Of a stretch of DNA of 32,923 nt, positions 1-31,518 are shown piece by piece. Below the pieces are notes generated by a model. That model worked only from the letters and a program-made list of their open reading frames with translations, was not told the DNA's origin and searched no databases. The stretch is from Escherichia phage vB_EcoM-683R1. The stretch is taken from sequence record ON470593; one strand, written 5' to 3'. Positions within the stretch are counted from its first letter, which is position 1; every line of letters starts with the position of its first letter. The position numbers were made by a program, and so were the translations under genes.

Positions 1-570
1 ATGTCTGAAGAAAAAGGAATTCTTTCCCGGATAACTGAATCGTTATCCGGCGTGGGAGGAGCAATTAAAGGCGCGGTTGGAGCAGCAAGAGAGATTCAGA
101 ATCTGACTGTCGACTATGCAGTTAAAGAGAAGACGCACACCTTACTCGATAAGCTAATGGATGTTCAGATGCAGCAAATGTCGCTTCAGGAGCTGCTGAT
201 TGCGGCTAAGGAGAAAATTGTTGAACTGGAAAATGAGAAAGTAAAGCAAGAGAACTGGGCCGCTGAAGCGGCGAGCTATGAACTTTACCAGCCTATGCGG
301 GGTACTCTGGTCTATCGCAGCAAGCTTTCTGCAGATACTGACCAATCTCCGGTTTATATTTGTCCCAATTGCTACGAGCAAAAGAGAAAATCTATATTGC
401 AAGCGGAAGGTCTGGTTATTAAGCCAGGCCTTGGGCGAGCCGTTAATATGGTTTGTTCGCACTGTAGGGCTTCCTATCTGTTCAACCGAAATGCTTTAGA
501 GGCCAGACTGCCTGCTGAAGATGAAAATCCGGGGAAGGCAATCACGGATTACGATCCTTACAACCAGTAA
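1..570 (+). CDS. Hypothetical protein, N-terminal coiled-coil region and C-terminal zinc-ribbon (CPNC...CSHC); may be 5'-truncated by the window edge
   Basis: 189-aa ORF; two CxxC pairs about 30 aa apart; heptad-like QELLIAAKEKIVELENEKVKQE segment; convergent with the repressor gene. Confidence 0.45.
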   Translation: MSEEKGILSRITESLSGVGGAIKGAVGAAREIQNLTVDYAVKEKTHTLLDKLMDVQMQQMSLQELLIAAKEKIVELENEKVKQENWAAEAASYELYQPMRGTLVYRSKLSADTDQSPVYICPNCYEQKRKSILQAEGLVIKPGLGRAVNMVCSHCRASYLFNRNALEARLPAEDENPGKAITDYDPYNQ

Positions 571-620
571 TTTCTTTAAGCATGGGTACCCTTCCGGCCA
601 CCCAGAGTTAAAGGAACTAA

Positions 621-645
621 GCGCCCCATCGTCGGGGCGTTTCAA
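621..645 (+). terminator. Possible intrinsic terminator after ORF 1..570
   Basis: GC-rich hairpin GCGCCCC-atcgtc-GGGGCGT followed by TTTCAACTT; U-tract is weak. Confidence 0.3.
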
Positions 646-887
646 CTTGCGTGACTTATCAGTTCGTCGCGGTGTTGTCCTCTACGCTTACCGTACGCAT
701 ACGGACTCGGCGCTTACCTCGATCCCATCGGGTGCCATTTCATTTTGCCAGGAGTACTGCGGCTTACCTGTCACGCGGTTCAGTTTGTTAAAGAGCTGGT
801 ATTAAAAAACGCATTAATTATGCGGTATCGTATTTATATGCGTTATGGGATTTTGCGTCAATACGAAAATGAATTATTTTGCAAATA

Positions 888-916
888 AGAAAACCGCCCT
901 TGTGGAGAGCGGTTTG
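888..916 (-). terminator. Hairpin terminator downstream of the repressor gene (readable on both strands)
   Basis: AAACCGC(C)C...G(A)GCGGTTT inverted repeat; on the minus strand the stem is followed by UUUUCUUAUUU directly after the repressor stop (946-948). Confidence 0.4.
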
Positions 917-945
917 ATCAGAAGTAAGTTATCAGACTGTAAAGG

Positions 946-1620
946 TTAGTACATGCGTAGCGCGGATTTGGCGATCCCCGCCACGTAATGGATTTTTTCA
1001 ATGTTTTCGCGTGGTACTCTGACTGGTGGATGATCTTCATTTACAGACATTAGATGGAACAGGCCATCGCGTTCGAACAAGAAGGTTTTAACCATGACCT
1101 CACCGTCCCGGGTAACCACAAGTACTTCATCACCAGGAGTGTAGTCGTGGTTGGGTTCGACGATTACGAACTCACCCTCTTTGATTCTAGGCATCATTGA
1201 ATCACCAACACATTTCAGGGCGTATGCATCTTCATCCTTTGTCGGCCAGTATATGAAACCATCACTGCTACCTACTGAATATTGGGTGTCGCTCCAAAGT
1301 CCTCCAACGCCTAGCTGAGTGTTTCCCAAAACAGGTACTTTATTAAACCTAAGAGAAATATACGTTTTTATACCCGTCGCGTCCTCTTTCTCCATTTCTT
1401 GAAGGCTCCTTTCTGCCAGGTCTATTGGTGACACGTGGAAGTAGTCGGCGATCTGCTTTAACGTTGCGTATTTCGGATCTTTCACCTCTCCTGATACCAG
1501 CCTGTGTAGCGTTGGTTGGTTCAGTTGTAACCGACGTGCCAGCTCAGTTATCGAGCTTATCTTGGCTTTGTCCATCAGGTACTTGATGTTTTGAGAAAGG
1601 ATATCGGTAGTATCAATCAT
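946..1620 (-). CDS. CI-like prophage repressor (N-terminal HTH, C-terminal S24/LexA-type autopeptidase)
   Basis: HTH segment ISSITELARRLQLNQPTLHRLVSG; S24 catalytic Ser in GDSMMP and Lys in VMVKTF; divergent from a cro-like gene. Confidence 0.85.
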   Translation of the reverse strand: MIDTTDILSQNIKYLMDKAKISSITELARRLQLNQPTLHRLVSGEVKDPKYATLKQIADYFHVSPIDLAERSLQEMEKEDATGIKTYISLRFNKVPVLGNTQLGVGGLWSDTQYSVGSSDGFIYWPTKDEDAYALKCVGDSMMPRIKEGEFVIVEPNHDYTPGDEVLVVTRDGEVMVKTFLFERDGLFHLMSVNEDHPPVRVPRENIEKIHYVAGIAKSALRMY

Positions 1621-1761
1621 TTGGATTCATCCATGTTGTATACAGGGACGGTGATTATGCGTTATCGGATATTTTAATCCAGGATGATATAGAATTGCCG
1701 TATTGCTGAATAATCCGTTTTCGTATAAATTTGCGCTATAGACGAAAGTGGAGACTTAAAT
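1621..1761. promoter_or_regulatory. Divergent repressor/cro promoter-operator region
   Basis: 141-bp AT-rich spacer between divergently transcribed repressor and cro-like genes; individual operators not resolved by eye. Confidence 0.5.
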
Positions 1762-1962
1762 ATGTCCGGACTAACACCACAAGAGATGGTCAAAAGCTTG
1801 ATTGATTCAGGGTATACCCAAAACCAAATTGCCGAAATTGCAGGCGTGAAGCAGTCTTCTATTAGTCGGCTTCTCACCGGGGTTCATTCTGACCCTCGCT
1901 TTTCTACAGTACGTGCGATAGAAAAGCTTTTTCAGGAAGTGACAGCTAGACAAAAGGCGTAA
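1762..1962 (+). CDS. Cro-like small HTH regulator
   Basis: 66 aa; HTH QNQIAEIAGVKQSSISRLLTG; divergent from repressor; immediately precedes the replication gene. Confidence 0.7.
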   Translation: MSGLTPQEMVKSLIDSGYTQNQIAEIAGVKQSSISRLLTGVHSDPRFSTVRAIEKLFQEVTARQKA

Positions 1963-1965
1963 CCC

Positions 1966-4227
1966 ATGTCTGATAACAAACCATGGGGAGCTACGCCCGA
2001 TGAGTGGTTCCACTTCGATCTGGTGTTGGGGATGACAGACAGGCTTTTACCTGTGGTGTCCAATCCCTGTGCAGAACTGTCGCCTAATAGCAAGCTGTCT
2101 CATAATTTCGGCAAAACCCCCAGTCGCTACAATGGCCAACGTAAGGTTGTTGGTATCCCCGACTGGGCTAACTATGTTGTTACGGAAAACGATTTTGCCC
2201 GGTGGTCGAACGAACCCGATTACGGTATTTGCGTTCGTACTGGCGACGGGGTGGTGGCTCTGGACTGCGATATCAATGACGCCGGGATGCAGGAGATCGT
2301 ACGCAATATTATCCTGTCATGCCTGGGGGAACTTCCGCCACGTCGCTGGCGGGCTGACAGTCATAAATGCCTGTACCTGATTGCTGTTGATGGCGACTAC
2401 CGTAAACGTGGTCACCGCCTGGAAGGCGAAAACAAACAAATAGAGCTGCTCGCTAAGGGCCAGCAGTTTGTGGCTTGTGGTACCCATCCGGCAGGCGAAC
2501 GTATTCAGTGGGACTGCGGTCTGCCCGGCGAACCTCTGAAAATTACATCTGAACAGCTCGAAAGCCTGTGGCAGCGTCTGGCGGATAACTTACCCGTGAA
2601 AGACAGCTATACCGCAGGTGCAGGACGTCAGCGTGATCTTTCCTGTGTTGATCCTTCCGCGACAGATGATGTCGCCGACTGGCTTGACGCGAACGGGTGG
2701 ACTCTGTCAGTCAGCTCTGATGGTTCCCGCAATCTGAAACCGTTTCGGGATGAGTCAGAATACAGCAACGGTTGCAGCGAAACATCCATTAAGTATTTCC
2801 CAAAAGGGACGGGGGGATTTGAACAGGGACATTTTAAAAGCATGCACAACACCGATGCGGGGCTTACTGATGCCGACTGGCTGGAAGGCTACGGCTATAC
2901 GCAATCCCTGTTCGAAGATCTCACGGTGGTTGAAGATGGCGATAAGCCTGAATTTACCGATATTAATACAGATATGACAGCTCATTTTCTGGAACGCTTT
3001 ATCTACGTCATCGAGGGTGACCAGGTATGTGATCTTAGCCGACCGCCATATCAGTGCATGATGGATATGAAGTCGTTCAAAAACCTGATGGCGCCTTACC
3101 AGTTCCCGCCAGAAGGGAAAGGGCAACCAACTCCCGCAACCAAACGGTGGATAGAGCATCGGCATAAGAAGATTGCTGAGACGACAGGCTATAAGCCCGG
3201 TGCGGGACGTATTATCGAGCGTTTCGACGGGCGGTTTGAGATAAACGAATTTTATATGCCTGAGCATCCACGTACAGCGGATACAAGTAAGGTGTCCACG
3301 TTCCTTAATCATATGGCGTATCTGGTACCTGATGCCTGGCAGCGCGAGTTTTTCATCGCCCGTCTGGGGTGGATGGTTCAGCGTCCGGAGCGTCGATGCC
3401 CGATTTCTATTCTGCATGTGGCTTCCGCACATGGTACGGGCAGAGGATGGGTCAGCCAGTTAATGGAGCGCGTGCTTGGTCCGTGGAACTGTGCTCGTAC
3501 TCGCATGAAGATCCTGTGCGATAACCAGTTCCATGACTATCTGTACAATACGCTTCTATGCACCATTGACGAGGTGCGCGAAAATGATAAGCGGTATGAG
3601 GTGAACGATAAGATCCGTGACGTGCTGACAGAACCACGGTTTGAAGTGAACCGCAAATATGGCAGCAAAAAAACGATGGATATATACACCGGCTTTCTGT
3701 TCTACACCAACCACTTTGATGCGCTGGCGCTGCCAGAGGAAGACCGACGTATCGCTGTGCTGGGGGGCCCTGACTTCGCCGCAACTGAAGAGCATTACGC
3801 CAGCCTGTACGGTGCGCTAAGCGACAGCGACTTTATCGCCCAGGTGTACTGGTATCTGATGGGCGTTGACCTGTCTCGCTTTAACTGGCAGCGCGCCCCC
3901 GAGACGAAAGAACGCCTTCTGATGATTGAAAGCAATAAGAGCGATGTGGAGGCTGCTCTTATTGAAATCCTGGATAATCCGCCTGTGCCAGCAATGACTT
4001 ATCAACAAATTGTTAACGCAATACTGGCAGAAGCAGGAATGGATGTAGAAATTAACCAGAAGCATATTACTCGCATTTTGAAAGAAAGAACAAAGCGGGA
4101 ACCCGTACGCGTAAAAATTGACGGGTTTGTATATAGGATTTGGATTCTTGTAAAAAATAACGATTTCAGCAACGAAGAATTGCGCGAAATATATAAATCT
4201 TGCGAAATTTTGCAATCTGGATTGTAA
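1966..4227 (+). CDS. Replication initiation protein, primase-polymerase (AEP/PrimPol-like N-terminal domain) fused to a large C-terminal region
   Basis: 753 aa; N-terminal VALDCDIND (DxD) and CGTHP motifs typical of archaeo-eukaryotic primase domains; iteron origin immediately downstream. Confidence 0.7.
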   Translation: MSDNKPWGATPDEWFHFDLVLGMTDRLLPVVSNPCAELSPNSKLSHNFGKTPSRYNGQRKVVGIPDWANYVVTENDFARWSNEPDYGICVRTGDGVVALDCDINDAGMQEIVRNIILSCLGELPPRRWRADSHKCLYLIAVDGDYRKRGHRLEGENKQIELLAKGQQFVACGTHPAGERIQWDCGLPGEPLKITSEQLESLWQRLADNLPVKDSYTAGAGRQRDLSCVDPSATDDVADWLDANGWTLSVSSDGSRNLKPFRDESEYSNGCSETSIKYFPKGTGGFEQGHFKSMHNTDAGLTDADWLEGYGYTQSLFEDLTVVEDGDKPEFTDINTDMTAHFLERFIYVIEGDQVCDLSRPPYQCMMDMKSFKNLMAPYQFPPEGKGQPTPATKRWIEHRHKKIAETTGYKPGAGRIIERFDGRFEINEFYMPEHPRTADTSKVSTFLNHMAYLVPDAWQREFFIARLGWMVQRPERRCPISILHVASAHGTGRGWVSQLMERVLGPWNCARTRMKILCDNQFHDYLYNTLLCTIDEVRENDKRYEVNDKIRDVLTEPRFEVNRKYGSKKTMDIYTGFLFYTNHFDALALPEEDRRIAVLGGPDFAATEEHYASLYGALSDSDFIAQVYWYLMGVDLSRFNWQRAPETKERLLMIESNKSDVEAALIEILDNPPVPAMTYQQIVNAILAEAGMDVEINQKHITRILKERTKREPVRVKIDGFVYRIWILVKNNDFSNEELREIYKSCEILQSGL

Positions 4228-18536: not shown

Positions 18537-20541
18537 AACTATTAAAGATTTCCTCGTCTCGCTTGGCTTCCGTGTGGATGATGCAGGAGCGAAAAAGTTC
18601 GGTTCTGTCCTCGCCGGTACAACTGCAAATGTCATCAAAATGGGGCTGGCTGTTGAAGGGGCTGCGCTGTCCGTGGTGGCCTTCACGGCTAAGATCGCCT
18701 CCGGCCTGGATAATCTTTACTGGGCGTCACAGCGCACCGGCGCGACGGTCCAGGGAATTCAGTCTATTGGCTATGCGGTTTCGCAGGTTGGCGGCAGTGT
18801 GGACGCTGCGCGATCTTCTCTGGAAAGCCTCTCCCGGTTTATTCGTAACAATCCCGGAGCAGAAGGCTTTCTGAATCGCCTGGGCGTACAGACCCGTGAT
18901 GCCAGCGGTAACATGCGTGACATGGCTGCTATCTTTACGGGCGTTGGACAGAAACTCAGCAGCATGCCGTATTACCGGGCTAACCAGTATGCGCAGATGC
19001 TGGGCATTGACGAAAATACCCTGATGGCTATGCGTCGCGGAGTGGGGCAGTTCAGCGCTCAGTATTCAGAAATGGTGAAAGCGATCGGATTTAATGCCGA
19101 TCAGGCTGCCTTATCGTCAAACCGGTTTATGACCTCGCTGAAATCGCTCGGTGAAATGGCCAGGATGGCGCGGGACAAAATCGGATCGAATCTTGCGGAC
19201 GGACTGGCGGGGCAGATTGATAACNNNNNNNNNNNNNNNNNNNNNNNNNNNNNNNNNNNNNNNNNNATAATTGAAAATTTTCCCAAAATTGAAGTCACCA
19301 TCACAAAGGTCATAAAGGGGATCCTCTGGCTGGGTGAGATAGTCGGGCGGGTAGCATTTCGGATAGTCGATGGTGTCGGAGATATCATCGAGTGGTGGGG
19401 GAAACTGGATGCCGAAACGAAAACCCTGATAGAGGTTATCGGCGGTCTGGTTGTCGCCATGCGGATACTTAACTCTACTTTCTGGATGTCACCTATAGGG
19501 CTGATTACCGGTCTGATCGTGGCTCTCGGTCTCTTGTGGGAAGACTACAAAACATGGAAAGAAGGCGGTAACAGTCTTATCGACTGGGAAAAATGGCAAC
19601 CGGCAATAGATAAAGCGAAGGATGCGATCACCTGGCTTCGTGATCACCTTCTGGAACTAAAAGATGGTGTTGGCGGCTGGCAAAATGCACTGGAAATCCT
19701 TGGTACATTCATCGCGGGTGTCTGGGTATCCAGGGTTCTGGGGGCTTTCGGGAAAATATCAGGTTTGCCGGTCCCGCCGTGGTTAAAAGGCTGGATGGCT
19801 TATGCTGCGTATTTGTACTCTGATCGCGAAAATATTGGTGCCAGTGCGAAGTCATCCTGGGATTACACGAAACAAAATATTGGAGATTCATTGCGCTGGC
19901 TTGGCATTGATACCGATTTTGGTCGTAATCCTCATACCGTAAAAGGCGCAAATATTCAGTCAGATATTCCAGGTGCTGAGCCGGAACAATATGCACAGGC
20001 TACGAAACGAGGAGAACGGAATAACAATCCGGGAAACCTTAATTTTGCTGGTCAGGCAGGGGCTTCTCTTGAACGCCCGGGCGGGCGATTTGCCAGATTT
20101 GAAACTGCCTTTGATGGATTACGGGCTCTTGCTCGTCAGTTAATGCTGTACGCCGGACGGGGAATAAACAGTGTGGAGAAAATTATCTCTACCTGGGCAC
20201 CTGCGTCTGATAATAACAACACAACAGCGTATATCAGGGCTGTATCGCAACGACTGGGAGTGGATCCCCGGGCTGCCCTGAATATGAGCGATCCGCAAAC
20301 CATGTCAGCATTGATGAGCAGCATTATCCAGCATGAGAATGGAAGAAATATCTATTCTCGAGAGCTGATTAATAAGGCTGCCGTGGCGGGAATTAGTGGC
20401 AAAGTGACAGAGGTTAACCAGCAAAATACCTACCACATTTACGGTGGCGGAGATCCGCACGCTGTCGGTAATGAGGTTGCACGTCGGCAACAGTCTGCAA
20501 ATGCTCAGGTCATGCGAAGTAATCAGGTGAGGGTGGGTTAG
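18505..20541 (+). CDS. Tail tape measure protein (TTG start; interrupted by an N-run)
   Basis: 678 aa; transmembrane-like central segments (…LIVALGLLWEDY…); follows the chaperone; C-terminal region with NNPGNLNF motif. Confidence 0.75.
   Translation: MRNGERIMNAETIKDFLVSLGFRVDDAGAKKFGSVLAGTTANVIKMGLAVEGAALSVVAFTAKIASGLDNLYWASQRTGATVQGIQSIGYAVSQVGGSVDAARSSLESLSRFIRNNPGAEGFLNRLGVQTRDASGNMRDMAAIFTGVGQKLSSMPYYRANQYAQMLGIDENTLMAMRRGVGQFSAQYSEMVKAIGFNADQAALSSNRFMTSLKSLGEMARMARDKIGSNLADGLAGQIDNXXXXXXXXXXXXXXIIENFPKIEVTITKVIKGILWLGEIVGRVAFRIVDGVGDIIEWWGKLDAETKTLIEVIGGLVVAMRILNSTFWMSPIGLITGLIVALGLLWEDYKTWKEGGNSLIDWEKWQPAIDKAKDAITWLRDHLLELKDGVGGWQNALEILGTFIAGVWVSRVLGAFGKISGLPVPPWLKGWMAYAAYLYSDRENIGASAKSSWDYTKQNIGDSLRWLGIDTDFGRNPHTVKGANIQSDIPGAEPEQYAQATKRGERNNNPGNLNFAGQAGASLERPGGRFARFETAFDGLRALARQLMLYAGRGINSVEKIISTWAPASDNNNTTAYIRAVSQRLGVDPRAALNMSDPQTMSALMSSIIQHENGRNIYSRELINKAAVAGISGKVTEVNQQNTYHIYGGGDPHAVGNEVARRQQSANAQVMRSNQVRVG
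19225..19266. other. Assembly gap / masked bases (42 N) inside the tape measure gene
   Basis: Run of n characters; length is a multiple of 3, so frame is preserved. Confidence 0.99.
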
Positions 20542-23401: not shown

Positions 23402-24171
23402 ATGGCAGTAACTGACCAGACCCGCAGTGGCGATCTTGCCGAAACATTTAAATCTGAACGGGAAACAACAAAGAACCAGATCCGTGTCGCCTTGCCTGGC
23501 ATTATTCAGTCATTCGATCCTGACGCGGTGACGGCGGTTGTGCAGCCAGCTATCCGGTCAGTTGAAAAGGATAACGACGGTAACCGCATTACCAAAAATT
23601 ACCCATTGCTGGTGGATGTGCCAGTGGTATTCCCGCGCGGCGGAGGCTGTACGTTGACTTTTCCGGTAAAAGCTGGGGATGAGTGTCTTGTCGTTTTTGC
23701 CGATCGTTGTATTGATTTCTGGTGGCAGAGCGGCGGGATACAGGAGACGGTTGATGACAGAATGCATGATTTATCGGATGCGTTTTGTATTGTCGGTCCC
23801 CAGTCGCAGGCTAGGAAGATTAGCGGTATTAATACCAGTGCCACACAGTTGCGTAGTGACGACGGCAGCACCTATTTTGAGCTTAATCCTGATACCAGGA
23901 AAATTAAAATTGTCGCTCCGGGGGGGCTTGATGTGGTTGCCCCCCTGGCTGATTTTTCTGAGAAAGTAACCATTCATGGCCTGTTAACCTGGATGGGGGG
24001 CATGGTGGGGTCTGTGGNNNNNNNNNNNNNNNNNTTTCTGGTGTGGCTTCAAAAATCACTGGTGCTGTTGAGTTTTTGGGGAGCGTGAAGGCTAACGGCA
24101 AGCCAATCGATGATACGCACACTCATGGTGGTGTTCAGCGCGGTGGAAGCAGTACCGACGGGGTAAACTGA
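23402..24171 (+). CDS. Baseplate spike/hub protein (Mu V / gpV-like), interrupted by a 17-N gap
   Basis: N-terminal part 23402-24017; C-terminal part continues in a different frame after the gap (…SGVASKITGAVEFLGSVKANGKPIDDTHTHGGVQRGG…) to TGA 24169-24171. Confidence 0.55.
24018..24034. other. Assembly gap / masked bases (17 N) inside the baseplate spike gene
   Basis: Run of n characters; length not a multiple of 3, so the apparent frameshift is an artefact. Confidence 0.99.
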
Positions 24172-25723: not shown

Positions 25724-26400
25724 GCAAATACACCGAACTAATCACGAACTACCACGCCACCAAACCTAAATTTCTTGCGCATGTTGATCTGATGACCCGG
25801 CCACTTATTGATGTTGCGGCTGCCACCAGAGGGCTGATTAGTGCATTTGATATTGACTCTGCGGTTGGTGTGCAACTTGACATCCTTGGATTGTGGATCG
25901 GACGTAGCCGTGTTGTCAGCCAGCCTATCTCAGGTGTCTATTTCAGCTGGGATACCGACGGGCTTGGATATGATCAGGGGGTATGGCAGGGACCATACGA
26001 TCCTGATTCAGGATACATGTATCTCAGCGATGAAACTTATCGTGTCATTCTTAAAGCGAAGATTGCGATTAATAACTGGGACGGACGGAATGATTCGCTT
26101 CCGGCAATTCTTGACGCGGCAACAGCAGGATCCGGGCTGCGAATGCAGATAGTCGATAACCAGGACATGACGATATCGGTCTGGGTCTTTCCTGATACTG
26201 ATATTTCAGATGTATCGCGTGAGTTAATTGCGGCAATTAAACAGGGGTATCTCACAGTAAAAGCCGCCGGGGTATGGGCGGGTGGCATTGAAACACCTTC
26301 GGTGGAAACCCCATCGGAAGGCTCAAAATTTTTTGGTTTTGATATGGATAACGAATTCATCAGTGGTTTTGATGTAGGAGCATGGGGAGTATTACTCTGA
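25720..26400 (+). CDS. Tail protein (Mu gp48-like) upstream of tail fibre
   Basis: 226 aa; overlapping stop/start with neighbours. Confidence 0.6.
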
Positions 26401-27194
26401 TGGCGAAAAATGACTTTAAAGCGTTTGCAACGGATCGAAATGCCAATGTTATATCGCAGGAGGAATGGGAAGCGTTGCCCGCGCTTTTATCTGGATTTAC
26501 AGCAGGGAAAGCCTCCAGTGCGCAAGTCAATAAGGTTATTCGGCAGGCCAGCTTTATTGCTGCAGCTCTGGCCCAGTTTGTAAGTGATAAAACGCAACGG
26601 GATGTGCTTGATAATGGTGATCTGCCCGGTTTTGTTGAATTGCTGGGATCGGGGTTTGCTGTTGAATACCTGAGCCGCAAGAATCCGTTTGGCGATATCA
26701 AATCGGACGGCACGGTGAAAACAGCTCTCGAAAACCTTGGTTTGGGAGAAGGTGCCCCAGCTATTGGCGTTCCGTTCTTCTGGCCGTCCGCTGCAATGCC
26801 AAATTCTGTCATCGACAGCTGGTCCGGTATGGTGTTTTTGAAGTTTAACGGGGCGAAATTTTCTGCCTCTGATTACCCTGTGCTGGCGAAAGTGTTTCCT
26901 TCGCTGGTATTACCTGAAGCCCGCGGTGATTTCATTCGTATCTGGGATGACGGGCGAGGTGCAGACGGTGGTCGCGAATTATTAAGCTGGCAGGCAGCTA
27001 CAAACTTTTCTCAGTTTGCCGGGAATATAGGCGATGGTGCGGGCCACACAATTAATTTTCATGATGGTATCGCCGGAAATCAGCCAGGATTTTCACGATT
27101 TAATTTCACCAGTAACTCTGTGGGTGATGGTGTGAATTTTGTTGCCGTCAGACCGCGAAATATTGCATTTAACTTTCTGGTGAGGGCTAAATGA
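26400..27194 (+). CDS. Tail fibre protein with switchable C-terminus (constant part fused to variable part Sv)
   Basis: Start ATG 26400 overlaps upstream stop (TGATG); tail-collar-like motifs (PFFWPS…[17 protein letters not shown]…[12 protein letters not shown]); crossover site inside the gene at about codon 113. Confidence 0.75.
26725..26750 (+). promoter_or_regulatory. Invertase crossover site L (hix/gix-like 12-2-12 site) inside the tail fibre gene
   Basis: CTCTCGAAAACC-TT-GGTTTGGGAGAA; right half-site and core identical to the inverted partner at 28547-28572. Confidence 0.7.
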
Positions 27195-27787
27195 TGACCC
27201 CAATTTTTGATGAAAATGGACTGGCTACAGTGCCGGGCGATATGCGTTGTTTTTATTATGATGCTGAAACATCTGAGTATACGGGCTGGTCTGATGAATA
27301 TATTAATACTGGCGTAAGTATGCCCGCCTGTTCCACTGGAATTAACCCTGGCGAAAACATTCCGGGAAAAGTGGCTGTATTTACAGGTAAGGGATGGAGC
27401 CATGAAGAGGACCATCGCAATGAGACTGTTTACTCAATCGAAAATGGCGCAGCTGTTACAGTGGATTATATCGGTGCCATCAAAGATGGTTATGTCACGC
27501 TTTCACCGTTAACGCCATACGATAAATGGGATGGTGAGAAATGGGTGACGGATACCGAGGCACAGCATAGCGCCGCAGTAGACGCGTCAGAAGCACAGCG
27601 CCAGTCACTGATTGATGCAGCAATGGCTTCCATTAGTCTGATTCAGCTGAAATTACAAGCCGGGCGGAAACTGACGCAGGCAGAAACAACCCGGCTTAAC
27701 GCTGTGCTGGATTACATTGACGCGGTGACGGCAACAGATACCAGCACCGCGCCGGATGTCATCTGGCCTGAACTGCCGGAGGCGTAG
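27191..27787 (+). CDS. tfa: Tail fibre assembly protein (Tfa)
   Basis: 198 aa; conserved C-terminus …[30 protein letters not shown]; ATGA-coupled to the tail fibre. Confidence 0.8.
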
Positions 27788-28199
27788 GCCATTCAATATC
27801 TGGCGCACCGGAAGTATCGACCAGTTCCAGTGCGTCCAGATAATCCAGCCACAAATTATATTGCACCAGTTCCTCACCTTTCAGGCGACCAATCGCCGCT
27901 TTACCAGGCCATTGCTTACTGTTTATGTATTCGTTGACCTGATTAATCAATTGCTGCTTTTTCAGTTCGGCTGCGGCAATTTGTTCCTCATGAGTTGGCG
28001 GTGGAATATCAATCCATGCAGGCATTCCGTCGATGACACCTCTGTATTTTCCTTCTGGTGCTTCCTTCATAAATTCGGCAGCAACAGTGTCGTCAATTTC
28101 GATTCCATCATCGGGCCATTCGCCGGATTCCTGATAAGCGATTTTAAGCTCCACAGGGAAAAACGCATTTTTATCGGCACTGAAAATATATTTCTGCAT
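27759..28199 (-). CDS. Alternative tail fibre assembly protein (Tfa'), opposite orientation
   Basis: 146 aa; conserved C-terminus …[26 protein letters not shown]; convergent with and overlapping tfa. Confidence 0.8.
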   Translation of the reverse strand: MQKYIFSADKNAFFPVELKIAYQESGEWPDDGIEIDDTVAAEFMKEAPEGKYRGVIDGMPAWIDIPPPTHEEQIAAAELKKQQLINQVNEYINSKQWPGKAAIGRLKGEELVQYNLWLDYLDALELVDTSGAPDIEWPTPPAVQAR

Positions 28200-28201
28200 T
28201 T

Positions 28202-28546
28202 CTACCGTCCTATCGAAATATAACTGAATCTGTATTGCTGTGAGATATCACTGGTTGCCACACGCCACGCTGAATTACTGATATGTTCAAAATTTACAGA
28301 CAAAACCTGCGGGGCAGGATTCGACGGGTCTGACTGAACGGCATCAGACATAACACTGACTGAAATCATCGGCTGATTAGGGAATGGTATAGGGAAGTGT
28401 CCACTGATAAAGCGGGTCGTGTTTCCTGAAAAAGTGCCAAACTGAACAATATATCCACCTGGTAGCCTGAACCATCCCGAACCAGAAGCGAATGCTCCCA
28501 TATCCGGTATCTGATTATCTCCTGTGCCCACATTCCGTTTTGCCGC
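28202..28546 (-). CDS. Alternative tail-fibre variable segment Sv' (promoterless; expressed only after inversion fuses it to the constant part)
   Basis: Minus-strand frame is open from crossover site R through TGA at 28202-28204; reads VGLGEAAKRNVGTGDN… with the core dinucleotide at codon positions 2-3, the same phase as in the plus-strand fibre. Confidence 0.6.
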   Translation of the reverse strand, partial: AAKRNVGTGDNQIPDMGAFASGSGWFRLPGGYIVQFGTFSGNTTRFISGHFPIPFPNQPMISVSVMSDAVQSDPSNPAPQVLSVNFEHISNSAWRVATSDISQQYRFSYISIGR

Positions 28547-28572
28547 TTCTCCCAAACCAACGTTTATGAAAA
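28547..28572 (+). promoter_or_regulatory. Invertase crossover site R (hix/gix-like)
   Basis: TTCTCCCAAACC-AA-CGTTTATGAAAA; inverted partner of site L; lies just upstream of the invertase start, as in Gin/Cin/Pin/Hin systems. Confidence 0.7.
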
Positions 28573-28626
28573 TGCAGAAATAACGAGCAAATGGCATCAT
28601 TCCTGCTTTTGTCAGAGGGATCCACT

Positions 28627-28941
28627 ATGCTTATTGGCTATGTACGTGTGTCAACAAATGACCAGAACACAGATCTACAACGTAATGCGCTGAACTGTGC
28701 AGGATGCGAGCTGTTTTTTGAAGACAAGATAAGCGGTACAAAGTCCGAAAGGCCGGGACTGAAAAAACTGCTCAGGACATTATCGGCAGGTGACACTCTG
28801 GTTGTCTGGAAGCTGGATCGGCTGGGGCGCAGTGTGCGGCATCTTGTCGTGCTGGTGGAGGAGTTGTGCGAACAAGGTGTTAATTTTAGTAGTTATGTTA
28901 TTACAGGTGGGGGATTTCTCCCCCTTATGCAGATTTTCTAG
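28627..28941 (+). pseudogene. Serine DNA invertase (Pin/Gin/Cin/Hin family), 3'-truncated after about 90 codons
   Basis: MLIGYVRVSTNDQNTDLQRNAL…KLDRLGRS…GVNF matches the invertase catalytic domain (active-site Ser in VRVS); after GVNF the sequence diverges (SSYVITGGGFLPLMQIF*) and the resolvase C-terminal/HTH domain is missing; DNA turns AT-rich at about 28888. Confidence 0.8.
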
Positions 28942-28945
28942 TTAA

Positions 28946-29791
28946 CTATTGGCGAAGTGGCCATATTTTTCTGTTTTTTAAAAAACTATCTTCAACTATA
29001 TAACTGCAACAATGTTCACTAAGGCCATAAAAACTAATTATTCCATATTTATGAGAAGCTATATCAGACAGTTCTGCTAATACTGTGGCAAGCCAACGAG
29101 CGATGCTAAGAGAATAGAATCTTCCCCACTTTTGAACAATGGTATTTTGTCCAGTACGGATGGAGGCTGATATAAGGTCTTGCATAATGTTGGTACTTTC
29201 ATTCATATACATGACCGTTGTATACGGTGAAAGAGTGGCATTGATAAACCTAGCATTTTCTTCAACACGTCTTTGTTCAACTGTATAATAATAATGTTTT
29301 TCAAGGATACTCTCGGCTACTTCTCCCCACCATTTATTAATAGGTTCATTATTGGTTAAATTGGGGCTGCTTAATGAGGAGAAATTTGCGTAACGTCCCC
29401 GTCGGGCATCAGCAAAGGAATCTAAACATTCAAGTATTTTGTAGGTAATTTTATGTGTAGGACGTGAATATCTCAGAGATAGTTGCATTTTTTTAGAAAT
29501 ACTATCAACCTCGTTGGTTAATTCAATGAGCTTATGTCCAAATTTTCTTACAATATTCTCATCAGGCATTTTCCCTTTGTGTTCAATGGCATAGTGTGCA
29601 ACAAGTATTAGTTTAGCAAGTCTCTCAAAACCTACAGAAAGCCCAAAAAATGCTGTGTAATATTCACCTATTTTGTCTGCATAATTGGCTTTACCTATGG
29701 CTGTTGCCCCAGAACCAATGAGCTGTGTAACTAAAGATGCTTCTCGGCCCAGAGCGTGCCATGCTGGAATATCCCAGGGATTTTTATTCAC
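28946..29791 (-). CDS. Hypothetical protein encoded in the AT-rich islet; candidate accessory/defence gene, function unknown
   Basis: 281-aa ORF, GTG start with AGGAAA RBS 8 nt upstream; low GC; located at the prophage end where cargo genes typically sit. Confidence 0.6.
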   Translation of the reverse strand: MNKNPWDIPAWHALGREASLVTQLIGSGATAIGKANYADKIGEYYTAFFGLSVGFERLAKLILVAHYAIEHKGKMPDENIVRKFGHKLIELTNEVDSISKKMQLSLRYSRPTHKITYKILECLDSFADARRGRYANFSSLSSPNLTNNEPINKWWGEVAESILEKHYYYTVEQRRVEENARFINATLSPYTTVMYMNESTNIMQDLISASIRTGQNTIVQKWGRFYSLSIARWLATVLAELSDIASHKYGIISFYGLSEHCCSYIVEDSFLKNRKIWPLRQ

Positions 29792-29918
29792 TTTATTATT
29801 TTCCTTTGCTCATAAATTTAAATTGTTTGAGTATCTCATAAAATATAAGGAGATGGTTAAGGTTGTTGATCGCATATAATAGCTATTGAAAGTCAAGAAC
29901 TCGGTTTTATGTTCTACC

Positions 29919-29959
29919 ACTAATTAATATATTGTGAGTTTGACAATATATTAATTAGT
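29919..29959. repeat. Perfect 17-bp inverted repeat with 7-bp spacer (candidate operator)
   Basis: ACTAATTAATATATTGT-gagtttg-ACAATATATTAATTAGT; arms are exact reverse complements; about 130 bp upstream of the 281-aa gene. Confidence 0.8.
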
Positions 29960-30092
29960 ATGATCAAACCAGCCATCAACTGATTCCTTGTATCTTTCAG
30001 AGTCTCCAGAACAAAAGCCTTAACGAATTCCTTATTTGTGAGTGCCTTACCAAAAGCCCATTGTTGCAGGGAACGAGTATAAAACTCGCCAG

Positions 30093-30359
30093 CTACTGGA
30101 GCAGGCTACCTGATTGTCGATCGATTCCTGCGTCCATATAGTCGATGGTCTTCTGGAGCTCTTCGATTAGGGCAATAGCTTTTGCTCGAGAAATGCATAT
30201 TAGTTGATCCGGAAATTCTTGTAAGGGCCAGTTTGGTATACAGGCCATGTTATCAGTGAAGGATGCAGACAAGTAAACTTCATTGGTAACTAGGGAATAG
30301 CTTACCTCAAAATTGGTGAGTTCCGGCAAACTGCTAACGTTTGATTCTTTTCTGCGCAT
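30093..30359 (-). CDS. Hypothetical small protein
   Basis: 88-aa ORF upstream of, and co-directional with, the 281-aa gene; no recognised motif. Confidence 0.4.
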   Translation of the reverse strand: MRRKESNVSSLPELTNFEVSYSLVTNEVYLSASFTDNMACIPNWPLQEFPDQLICISRAKAIALIEELQKTIDYMDAGIDRQSGSLLQ

Positions 30360-30669
30360 AATATTATCCAGGACTGTAATTATGTACAGTTAATGGTCTT
30401 CAATTTCGAAGAGGGAGTCAAGGGGGAGTCTCAAATGAACCTTTATAGAAAGGGGAGCTCTTTGTGTTGCTGAACGTATGCAAAATTTTTTTGCACCATA
30501 AATTCAATAACACATTCAATAACACATTACTGCATCACCATGAAAATAAATGTATTTTTATTTAATTTCACACATATCACAATTGATGCATTTTTTAGTG
30601 ATTAACAGCGCCATAAGGAAACTCTCAAAACAACACAAACCGGGCGGGCATTATACGCGCATTCTTTAC

Positions 30670-31518
30670 TCAGACCAGTTTTTTCACCAGCGCTTCACTG
30701 TGACGAATACGTTCTGGAGCCAGTTCCAGATCCTGCTGAATCAGCGCAATGAACAGCAAATCCGTTAACATTCCCTGCGCGTGACAAGCAGAGATTGAAG
30801 CACTGTTTGTCGCTTGTTCTTCGGCAATGGTATACAGGCAATGAGAAGCACGCTGTTGCAGGGCATTCGGAGTAAAGCCGGTAATCGCCAGCACTTTTCC
30901 GCCCACTCGCAGCATCTCATCTGCCGCCAGGTTTAACTCGCGTCGTACACCGGTGTAAGAAATGGCTAATAACAGATCGTCAGGGGACGACGCCTGTACG
31001 GTAGCGAGTAGCGCATGCATATCGCGCACTGCGGCAGCATTGAAGCCAATCTTCATCAGCTTCCAGGCAAAGTTTTGCGCCACCAGACCCGAAGCGCCAA
31101 TACCGGTCAGAATTATCCGCCGCGCAGAGCGCAACATTGTTACGCATTCATGCAGTTTCTCTTCACTATTAACGTTTAGCGTTGCGTACATAGCGGCAGT
31201 ATTTTCTTTAATCAGTTTTTCGCCGACCAGCCGTAACGGATCATCACCGCGGATTTGGTTATGAATGGGCACGGAGGGCGATTCCGGCTGGCTTGCCAGC
31301 GCTTCACTCAACGCCAACTTAAGCGCCGGAAAACCTTTATAGCCGAGTTTTTGCGCGAACTTCACGACGCTGGACTGACTGACTCCGGCTTCGTTGGCCA
31401 GTTGCTGAGAGCTTAAATGGCGCGCCGTATCAGGTTGTAGCAGCAGATAATCCGCCAGTTTTTTATCACTCTGGGCAAGCCCCTGGTAACGCTGACGGAT
31501 ACGAAGTAAGCCGTTCAT
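30670..31518 (-). CDS. yfhH: RpiR/MurR-family transcriptional regulator YfhH (host)
   Basis: HTH …LANEAGVSQSSVVKFAQKLGYKGF… plus SIS domain; start set at MNGLLRIRQ (282 aa); adjacent to pgpC and tadA as in E. coli. Confidence 0.85.
   Translation of the reverse strand: MNGLLRIRQRYQGLAQSDKKLADYLLLQPDTARHLSSQQLANEAGVSQSSVVKFAQKLGYKGFPALKLALSEALASQPESPSVPIHNQIRGDDPLRLVGEKLIKENTAAMYATLNVNSEEKLHECVTMLRSARRIILTGIGASGLVAQNFAWKLMKIGFNAAAVRDMHALLATVQASSPDDLLLAISYTGVRRELNLAADEMLRVGGKVLAITGFTPNALQQRASHCLYTIAEEQATNSASISACHAQGMLTDLLFIALIQQDLELAPERIRHSEALVKKLV

Follow-up and report, generated by a model that had tools for sequence, protein, structure and literature searches.

The analysed DNA (hereafter the window) is a 32,923-nt stretch of Escherichia phage vB_EcoM-683R1 (ON470593). 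It carries a site-specific inversion switch of the Pin/Gin/Cin/Hin type, which occupies the right end of an E. coli prophage that is SEN34-like and lies beside yfhH. The switch type is already known and represents a textbook system. A literature search found no mention of the phage records ON470579 and ON470588. The locus comprises the following features, in window coordinates.

26400–27194, plus strand: tail-fibre gene in the window's orientation (264 aa; RefSeq CDS WP_001551478.1)
26400–26736, plus strand: Sc, the constant 5' part of the fibre gene (codons 1–112); PHROG tail-fibre families match residues 1–120
26725–26750: crossover site L (26 bp), CTCTCGAAAACC TT GGTTTGGGAGAA, with the core TT at 26737–26738
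26737–28560: invertible segment, 1824 bp core to core; its reverse complement reproduces locus L007 of strain 22AR0747
26739–27194, plus strand: Sv, the variable tip expressed in the window's orientation (151 aa)
27194–27787, plus strand: tfa, assembly chaperone partner of Sv (Pfam Caudo_TAP, 4.7e-26; RefSeq WP_024192484.1)
27759–28199, minus strand: tfa', chaperone partner of Sv' (Pfam Caudo_TAP, 9.3e-34)
28202–28558, minus strand: Sv', the silent alternative tip (Pfam Gp53-like_C, 4.5e-09)
28547–28572: crossover site R (26 bp), TTCTCCCAAACC AA CGTTTATGAAAA, with the core AA at 28559–28560
28627–28893, plus strand: truncated Pin/Gin-family serine invertase gene (residues 1–87/89); the reading frame continues to a stop codon at 28941
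28648–28711: presumed recombinational enhancer within the 5' portion of the truncated invertase gene, assigned by position and homology
28888–30077: foreign AT-rich block (GC 35–40%) replacing the 3' half of the invertase gene
30426–30451: quasi-crossover site, GAGTCTCAAATG AA CCTTTATAGAAA, sharing 17 of 26 positions with site R as well as its AA core and its orientation

In this arrangement, Sc is joined at the 26-bp site to either Sv or Sv', two unrelated putative receptor-binding tips that lie head to head. PHROG tail fibre and tail collar fibre families match the Sv region (residues 104–264 of the fibre protein). A comparison of Sv with Sv' detected no similarity (E = 2.5), and the two tips probably recognise different receptors. 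The chaperone genes tfa and tfa' overlap tail to tail, and the likeness between their products is confined to the C-terminal 80 aa (34% identity). The annotated Sv' ORF extends through site R up to 28600. An earlier note on this DNA had placed the crossover about one third into the fibre ORF; it actually falls at codon 113 of 264, ∼43% into the gene. The same note correctly positioned the core dinucleotide at codon positions 2–3 in both the plus-strand fibre frame and the minus-strand Sv' frame. Its prediction that inversion would create an in-frame Sc-Sv' fusion, with tfa' inverting alongside, also holds. Reverse-complementing 26737–28560 in silico results in an uninterrupted 227-aa Sc-Sv' protein, and this fusion, with the same Sc as in the window, is annotated as WP_060615827.1 in strain 22AR0747. 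Both fusions are in frame, the tips are unrelated and two Caudo_TAP genes lie within the segment, as expected of a tail-fibre host-range switch such as Mu G, P1 C, e14 P or p15B Min.

Sites L and R are inverted, imperfectly palindromic 26-bp sequences with identical 2-bp cores (TT/AA), as is characteristic of the Din family. The inner half-sites are identical, while the outer half-sites differ. Within the window, the exact 15-mer TTGGTTTGGGAGAAG is found only at 26737–26751 (plus strand) and 28546–28560 (minus strand), and the inverted repeat reaches 20 nt at 95% identity. When up to 2 mismatches were permitted, none of 100 shuffles contained two matches to the 15-mer, which excludes chance. 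The hix/gix-like sites described previously, with their 15-bp inverted repeat, identical half-site and shared core, are therefore genuine, and the inner halves survive precise alignment. Site L is unchanged across all related loci examined, except for the rearranged locus L015. Loss of site R in strain 357900 was considered and rejected, as the site is present there with one substitution.

The invertase ORF (28627–28941) aligns to Gin and Pin over residues 1–87 only; identity is 75% to Gin and 94% to PinE of BH100N, which is intact. Its final 17 residues come from translation running on into unrelated DNA (35–40% GC). The breakpoint is between 28887 and 28893, and homology to the intact-pin prophage of BH100N ends at ∼28887 and restarts at 30078. 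The truncated protein spans positions 2–98 of 145 of the Pfam Resolvase domain, and a Pfam search detected no HTH_7 in it; intact relatives (181–196 aa) contain both Resolvase (residues 3–135) and HTH_7 (residues 138–179). Thus, the earlier claim of a truncated invertase followed by AT-rich foreign DNA is supported by the Gin/Pin alignment, by Pfam and by RefSeq, which already labels the gene a partial pseudogene “missing C-terminus”. The catalytic N-terminal domain, thought to be retained, is itself cut. The ORF is not a full-length invertase, as homology stops at residues 87–89, nor is it a natural short variant, given the length of the intact relatives and the lack of homology in the last 17 residues. 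The truncation removes the last part of the catalytic core together with the E helix and the DNA-binding HTH domain, so that the product presumably cannot act. No second invertase homologue was found within the window. The locus lacks the intact adjacent serine invertase (Resolvase, E helix and HTH_7) of the Din family and is a degraded member of that family, in which the adjacent invertase is homologous but dead.

The recombinational enhancer of Salmonella hin is a 65-bp element inside the recombinase gene, with a Fis site at each end, ∼100 bp from one hix site (PMC3798978). In the Din family generally, the two Fis sites are spaced ∼48 bp apart and inversion depends on Fis and on negative supercoiling. 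The position of the candidate enhancer (28648–28711) fits this layout, and two candidate Fis sites were assigned by eye (GTGTCAACAAATGAC, 28648–28662; GTGCAGGATGCGAGC, 28697–28711). The region is identical in the intact BH100N pin and is conserved with Mu gin. A Fis enhancer presumably survives in the retained 5' part of the gene, to judge from the sequence.

The earlier note regarded the switch as locked by the loss of its invertase. Complete E. coli genomes contradict this, as exact inversion products are present beside the same truncated invertase in three independent lineage pairs. The window inverted in silico is the same as strain 22AR0747 (ST38-like) over 8565 bp with 0 mismatches, inverted STEC 97-3250 corresponds to O111:H11 strain 8D over 8189 bp with 2 mismatches, and the inverted cattle strain C11 corresponds to C10 over 9640 bp with 0 mismatches. 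The right junction of the inverted form (Sv, site, truncated gene and foreign DNA; 829 bp) occurs in 3 complete genomes at 100% identity, and the window's form of this junction in 18. The inverted state is carried by nine or more independent complete assemblies.

A further rearrangement involves the quasi-site. CAU16175 displays a reciprocal inversion between site L and the quasi-site, with both junctions located exactly at the core dinucleotide. The sole identical run across the core of these two sites is 3 bp (AAC); as a result, homologous recombination cannot explain this inversion. To judge from the junction sequences, such reciprocal exchange at the core is the hallmark of site-specific enzyme action. 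A parallel is provided by the quasi-cix sites used by Cin of phage P1: in CAU16175, the partner of site L is likewise a degenerate sequence, in which the AA core persists. The difference is that the event here was seen once, in a natural genome. Thus, exchange at the core dinucleotides is observed both in the three lineage pairs and in the quasi-site event.

These observations are very likely explained by an orphaned Pin/Gin-type switch, intact in cis and dependent on a helper, that is flipped in trans by the invertases of other prophages. In such a system, a serine invertase would cut the 2-bp cores of the inverted sites and the 1824-bp segment would rotate, exchanging Sv and tfa for Sv' and tfa' in frame. 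The foreign block with its 281-aa gene apparently replaced the 3' half of the invertase gene, cutting it at codon 87–89. Both sites survive intact, presumably together with the Fis enhancer, which would leave the segment as an orphan substrate. It would be static without a compatible invertase, and a PinE-like or PinQ-like enzyme of another prophage could invert it in trans. Without a helper in the cell, the switch is probably frozen. In the related e14 system, PinQ of prophage Qin has been shown experimentally to invert the P segment in trans, and a pinE mutant was reported to be locked (PMC12529663).

To relate orientation to potential helpers, we carried out a census of 21 near-identical ST38-like genomes (3 inverted, 18 in the window's orientation). 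Chimeric queries, consisting of a single-copy tag joined to the C-terminal half of pin or to pinQ, were used to count BLAST places per chromosome. Helper presence was deduced from extra places, as counts irrespective of position or intactness and on chromosomes only. Each of the three inverted genomes has, at another chromosomal place, either the C-terminal half of a PinE-like gene or a PinQ-like gene, and all ten genomes with neither PinE-like nor PinQ-like places are in the window's orientation. WP3-W18-ESBL-08 (NZ_AP022003.1) is an example of a strain with no such helper. Seven genomes with a PinQ-like gene alone stay un-inverted. The helper counts (3/3 inverted versus 8/18 un-inverted) amount to a statistically weak association (Fisher p ∼0.12) among strains that are phylogenetically related. 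The earlier note had called the switch probably frozen unless a related invertase acts in trans: a frozen state is not supported, while the trans proviso appears to be borne out by the extra invertase gene in all the inverted ST38-like genomes. In the inverted O111:H11 strain 8D, no helper was detected on the chromosome; a past or plasmid-borne helper must therefore be assumed for this strain.

A permanently fixed segment with a single fibre tip would agree with the clearly non-functional invertase and with the predominance of the window's orientation (18 of 21 near-identical genomes). It is highly improbable in view of the three lineage pairs, in which exact inversion products adjoin the same truncated gene and mismatches number 0–2 over 8–9.6 kb. 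This contradiction applies at the population level, and an individual helper-free strain could still fit. The inversions might instead be older than the truncation, with the truncated right end subsequently spread onto both orientations by homologous recombination. The same truncated end indeed adjoins different tail modules, SEN34-like or GP46/YmfQ-type (C10 and C11), indicating that prophages have swapped right ends. However, the two orientations within each pair are only 0–2 bases apart over 8–9.6 kb, compared to 1–8% between separate lineages, and one truncation breakpoint is common to 44 genomes of several lineages. The flips are thus much younger than the truncation, which makes the reverse order scarcely credible.

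Invertase-independent inversion, in which the 15–20 bp inverted repeats recombine by a RecA-dependent or short-homology route, would also account for strain 8D, and exchange anywhere in the 15-bp identity yields the same product, such that the junctions cannot separate the mechanisms. Efficient RecA recombination, however, needs far more than 15–20 bp. Such a process would have to account for at least three or four independent events among just 44 genomes, and for the reciprocal core junctions in CAU16175, where the quasi-site shares just the core and scattered positions. None of the inverted ST38-like genomes is helper-free. We therefore consider it quite unlikely, and infer that the inversions were the work of a helper invertase. 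Assembly artefacts were also considered, since cultures can be mixed for invertible segments and an assembler reports one state. This possibility is close to negligible: a repeat of 15–20 bp is not long enough to confuse an assembler, the two junctions are exact, at least nine independent complete assemblies are inverted, and finding both orientations in one culture would in itself demonstrate active inversion.

The closest known system is the e14 P segment of E. coli K-12 with its invertase PinE. The published repeat TTGGTTTGGGAGAAGG equals the 16-mer at 26737–26752 of the window (PMC12529663), and the segments are of similar length (1797 bp versus 1824 bp here). In both, a pair of stf tips and a pair of tfa genes are arranged head to head, and pin follows just beyond site R. 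They differ in their Sv tips and in the adjacent pin, which is truncated here at codon 87–89. Moreover, e14 is defective and located at icd, whereas the present element, located at yfhH, is a SEN34-like myovirus prophage of full length. StfE2 of e14 blocks T2 adsorption. The G segment of phage Mu shares the order Sc, Sv-U / U'-Sv', invertase, as well as a crossover within the fibre ORF (Mu annotation). The truncated protein resembles Gin (75% identity over residues 1–87), and the enhancer-bearing 5' region of gin is retained. The Mu segment is larger (∼3 kb, with a fibre of ∼500 aa), its gix half-sites differ in sequence and its gin is intact. The Salmonella Hin/hix system also relies on 26-bp sites that have a 2-bp core and share one half-site, and its enhancer arrangement is presumed to apply here; Hin flips a promoter, however, while protein C-termini are exchanged in the present system.

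In the 44 genomes that have the old truncation in common, both crossover sites and the candidate enhancer region have been conserved, and flipping still occurs. It is conceivable, though we think it unlikely, that the orphan segment is being kept as a helper-dependent module rather than decaying, creating a regulatory dependency between prophages. Were this the case, the invertases of other prophages would control the fibre tip of this prophage and perhaps, by analogy to StfE2, a host surface or defence phenotype as well. In practice, annotation and phase-variation surveys should not take an invertible segment as fixed on the ground that the neighbouring invertase is truncated. The orientation can vary among otherwise identical genomes with their co-resident prophages, and with it the fibre protein and host range that are predicted. 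The locus also provides a natural set of strains (no helper, PinE-like or PinQ-like) for testing invertase action across prophages.

The 281-aa gene lies on the minus strand within the foreign block (28946–29791). It has no match in Pfam, PADLOC, PHROGs or NCBIfam, and the only lead, from a fold search, is a HEPN-like similarity. The E. coli genomes that carry this gene have the truncated invertase in 44 of 44 cases. The HEPN-like gene, whose arrival apparently truncated pin, may itself be defence cargo.

The two 26-bp crossover sites, site L and site R, are located where the earlier note had placed them, and bracket an invertible segment of 1824 bp (26737-28560, core to core). The segment consists of four genes, namely the alternative fibre tips Sv and Sv' and two Caudo_TAP chaperone genes.

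26725-26750, site L: CTCTCGAAAACC TT GGTTTGGGAGAA
28547-28572, site R: TTCTCCCAAACC AA CGTTTATGAAAA
Sv: fibre tip, 151 aa, with matches to tail fibre and collar families
Sv': fibre tip, with a Gp53-like_C match

The 15-bp exact inverted repeat proposed for these sites is found in the window only at L and R, in opposite orientations. Two matches to this 15-mer, with 2 mismatches tolerated, were obtained in 0 of 100 shuffles, and the repeat reaches 20 nt at 95%. The inner half-sites are identical, as had been noticed, while the outer ones differ, a pattern shared with hix sites. In either reading frame, the core dinucleotide occupies codon positions 2-3, and the reverse complement of 26737-28560 yields an open gene of 227 codons, in agreement with the predicted in-frame fusion of the constant fibre part (Sc) to Sv'. 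The crossover falls in codon 113 of the 264-codon fibre gene, ~43% along it and not one third as first estimated. The anticipated co-inverting chaperone, tfa', is the second Caudo_TAP gene within the segment. No similarity is seen between the two tips, and tfa and tfa' have only their C-terminal 80 residues in common. These chaperone genes are convergent and overlap by 29 bp (27759-27787); an 18-nt inverted repeat in this region (27706-27723 / 27832-27849) reflects their conserved C-terminal coding ends and is not a separate element.

The Pin/Gin-family serine invertase gene beside site R is truncated, as the earlier note had recognized: when the ORF at 28627-28941 is aligned to Gin (PDB 4m6f, 3uj3) and intact PinE proteins, the match is confined to residues 1-87. 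Strain Ceylon31 has the closest intact allele, and DNA homology to it stops between 28887 and 28893. Pfam detects positions 2-98 of 145 of the Resolvase domain and no HTH_7 in the truncated product, compared to Resolvase 3-135 and HTH_7 138-179 in intact relatives. Thus, the DNA-binding C-terminus is lost as proposed, and the fragment does not keep its whole catalytic domain; the product has no DNA-binding domain and no E helix, which forms the dimer and tetramer interfaces, and its catalytic core is incomplete at the end. In the NCBI annotation, it already carries the label "recombinase family protein, incomplete, missing C-terminus". A search across the window for a second invertase homologue found none.

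At the same chromosomal site, the related prophage of BH100N has a pinE that is intact (184 aa), and the gene after it is a different one, of 215 aa. The two loci are homologous up to ~28887 and again from 30078, which defines 28888-30077 as a swapped block. Its GC content of 35-40% fits the AT-rich foreign DNA suspected in place of the invertase C-terminus, and it contains a 281-aa gene on the minus strand. Since the truncated invertase with the same breakpoint is present in 44 of 44 E. coli genomes bearing the 281-aa gene, block acquisition and truncation look like one old event.

The enhancer of the hin system spans 65 bp, has Fis sites at both ends and lies ~100 bp from a hix site (PMC3798978). 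A candidate equivalent is suggested by homology to this position:

~28648-28711: candidate enhancer stretch, well within the retained 261 bp

The intact BH100N gene shares this stretch without change, and it is also conserved in Mu gin; the cis requirements of the switch therefore appear complete, with putative Fis sites.

Genome comparisons indicate that the segment has inverted repeatedly after the loss of its own invertase. The expected post-inversion right junction (829 bp: reverse-complemented Sv, site R, truncated gene and 300 bp of foreign block) is matched over its full length and at 100% identity by 3 complete genomes (22AR0747, MSB1_6C and 1296KP), and 18 have the window's own right junction. 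The window inverted in silico equals the 22AR0747 locus over 8565 bp with 0 mismatches and 0 gaps; in the annotation of that locus, Sc is fused to Sv' in one protein and Sv is a remnant with an incomplete N-terminus. Likewise, inverted STEC 97-3250 matches O111:H11 strain 8D over 8189 bp (2 mismatches) and inverted cattle strain C11 matches C10 over 9640 bp (0 mismatches), with the same truncated gene in both members of each pair. Lineages diverge by 1-8% in this region, whereas the orientations within each pair are identical or nearly so, which argues that the flips are far younger than the common truncation. The switch, previously considered probably frozen, is so in cis only; it is not locked in nature, as exact inversion products lie beside the truncated gene in three lineages.

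CAU16175 (NZ_CP047378.1) carries a larger inversion, in which site L is joined to a degenerate site:

30426-30451, quasi-site: GAGTCTCAAATG AA CCTTTATAGAAA, in AT-rich DNA before yfhH

Of the 26 positions of the quasi-site, 17 are the same as in site R, and the AA core is retained. The exchange is reciprocal, with both junctions (near 425 and 5489 of the locus) exactly at the AA/TT core dinucleotide. Across the core, the sole identical run is 3 bp (AAC). With so little identity, a site-specific enzyme is a likelier cause than homologous recombination, and the strain thereby gives independent support for the action of an invertase. The fibre gene is destroyed in this strain, Sc being parted from both tips, and an IS421 separates the truncated pin from the 281-aa gene.

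The orphan segment would flip once an invertase is supplied by another prophage. Candidate helpers were counted with a single-copy foreign-block tag joined to the missing pin C-terminal half or to K-12 pinQ, and scored by how many places on each chromosome matched at blastn sensitivity. Among the 18 near-identical ST38-like genomes in window orientation, PinE-like and PinQ-like genes are both absent from 10, 7 have only the PinQ-like one and 1 has both; two of the three inverted ones have a PinE-like gene and the third a PinQ-like gene. No inverted ST38-like genome is helper-free, although the numbers are small (Fisher p ~0.12) and the strains related. PinQ-type helpers alone seem weak (7/8 such genomes un-inverted), and PinE-type helpers seem more effective (2/3 inverted). 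O111:H11 8D is inverted with zero helpers detected on its chromosome, unlike its four sister strains, each with a PinQ-like gene.

The e14 P segment is flanked by the inverted repeats TTGGTTTGGGAGAAGG and its complement (PMC12529663), the same 16-mer as window 26737-26752. PinQ is encoded by another prophage, Qin, and shares only 38% identity with PinE; it inverts this segment in trans (PMC12529663), which fits a helper acting on the window's segment. The window's switch is laid out overall like the annotated Mu G region. The element is a genuine, degraded Hin/Gin/Cin/Pin inversion system of the tail-fibre host-range type, and in nature the segment very probably behaves as an orphan substrate that flips with another prophage's invertase. 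Already known or annotated are the type of system, its crossover sequence, the action of an invertase in trans from one prophage to another and the pseudogene status of the invertase; the sole, modest addition is natural evidence that an orphaned switch still works.

Upstream of the truncated invertase, the 281-aa gene and the yfhH junction, C10 and C11 have another tail module, of GP46 / YmfQ / baseplate V type, implying that the invertible module and right end were exchanged between unrelated prophage backbones. A module in the P2-like phage 500465-2 is 94% identical to the invertible module.

The greater part of a SEN34-like myovirus prophage lies within the window, with genes for terminase, portal, head, sheath, baseplate and fibre; its right end adjoins yfhH/murR. 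Region 26300-30700 has chromosomal matches of 100% identity in ~18 complete E. coli genomes (e.g. NZ_AP022003.1 and a strain named ST38), and likewise in vB_EcoM-611R5 (ON470588.1) and vB_EcoM-606R2 (ON470579.1). Both of the latter, deposited as "complete phage genomes", are prophage predictions flanked by host DNA: they take in yfhH, yfhB and part of tadA, all host genes, and stop at the window's last base. Both label a 104-aa read-through ORF "DNA invertase", with the truncation unmarked. The prophage-end stretch common to the window and the intact-pin prophage of BH100N includes one further ORF:

30093-30359, minus strand: 88-aa ORF, PHROG 17793 match (5.8e-46), a family of unknown function

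Runs of N at 19225-19266 (42 bases) and 24018-24034 (17 bases) break the window sequence and look like deliberate masking rather than biology; the second falls within the RefSeq gene "xxxxx family membrane-puncturing spike protein".
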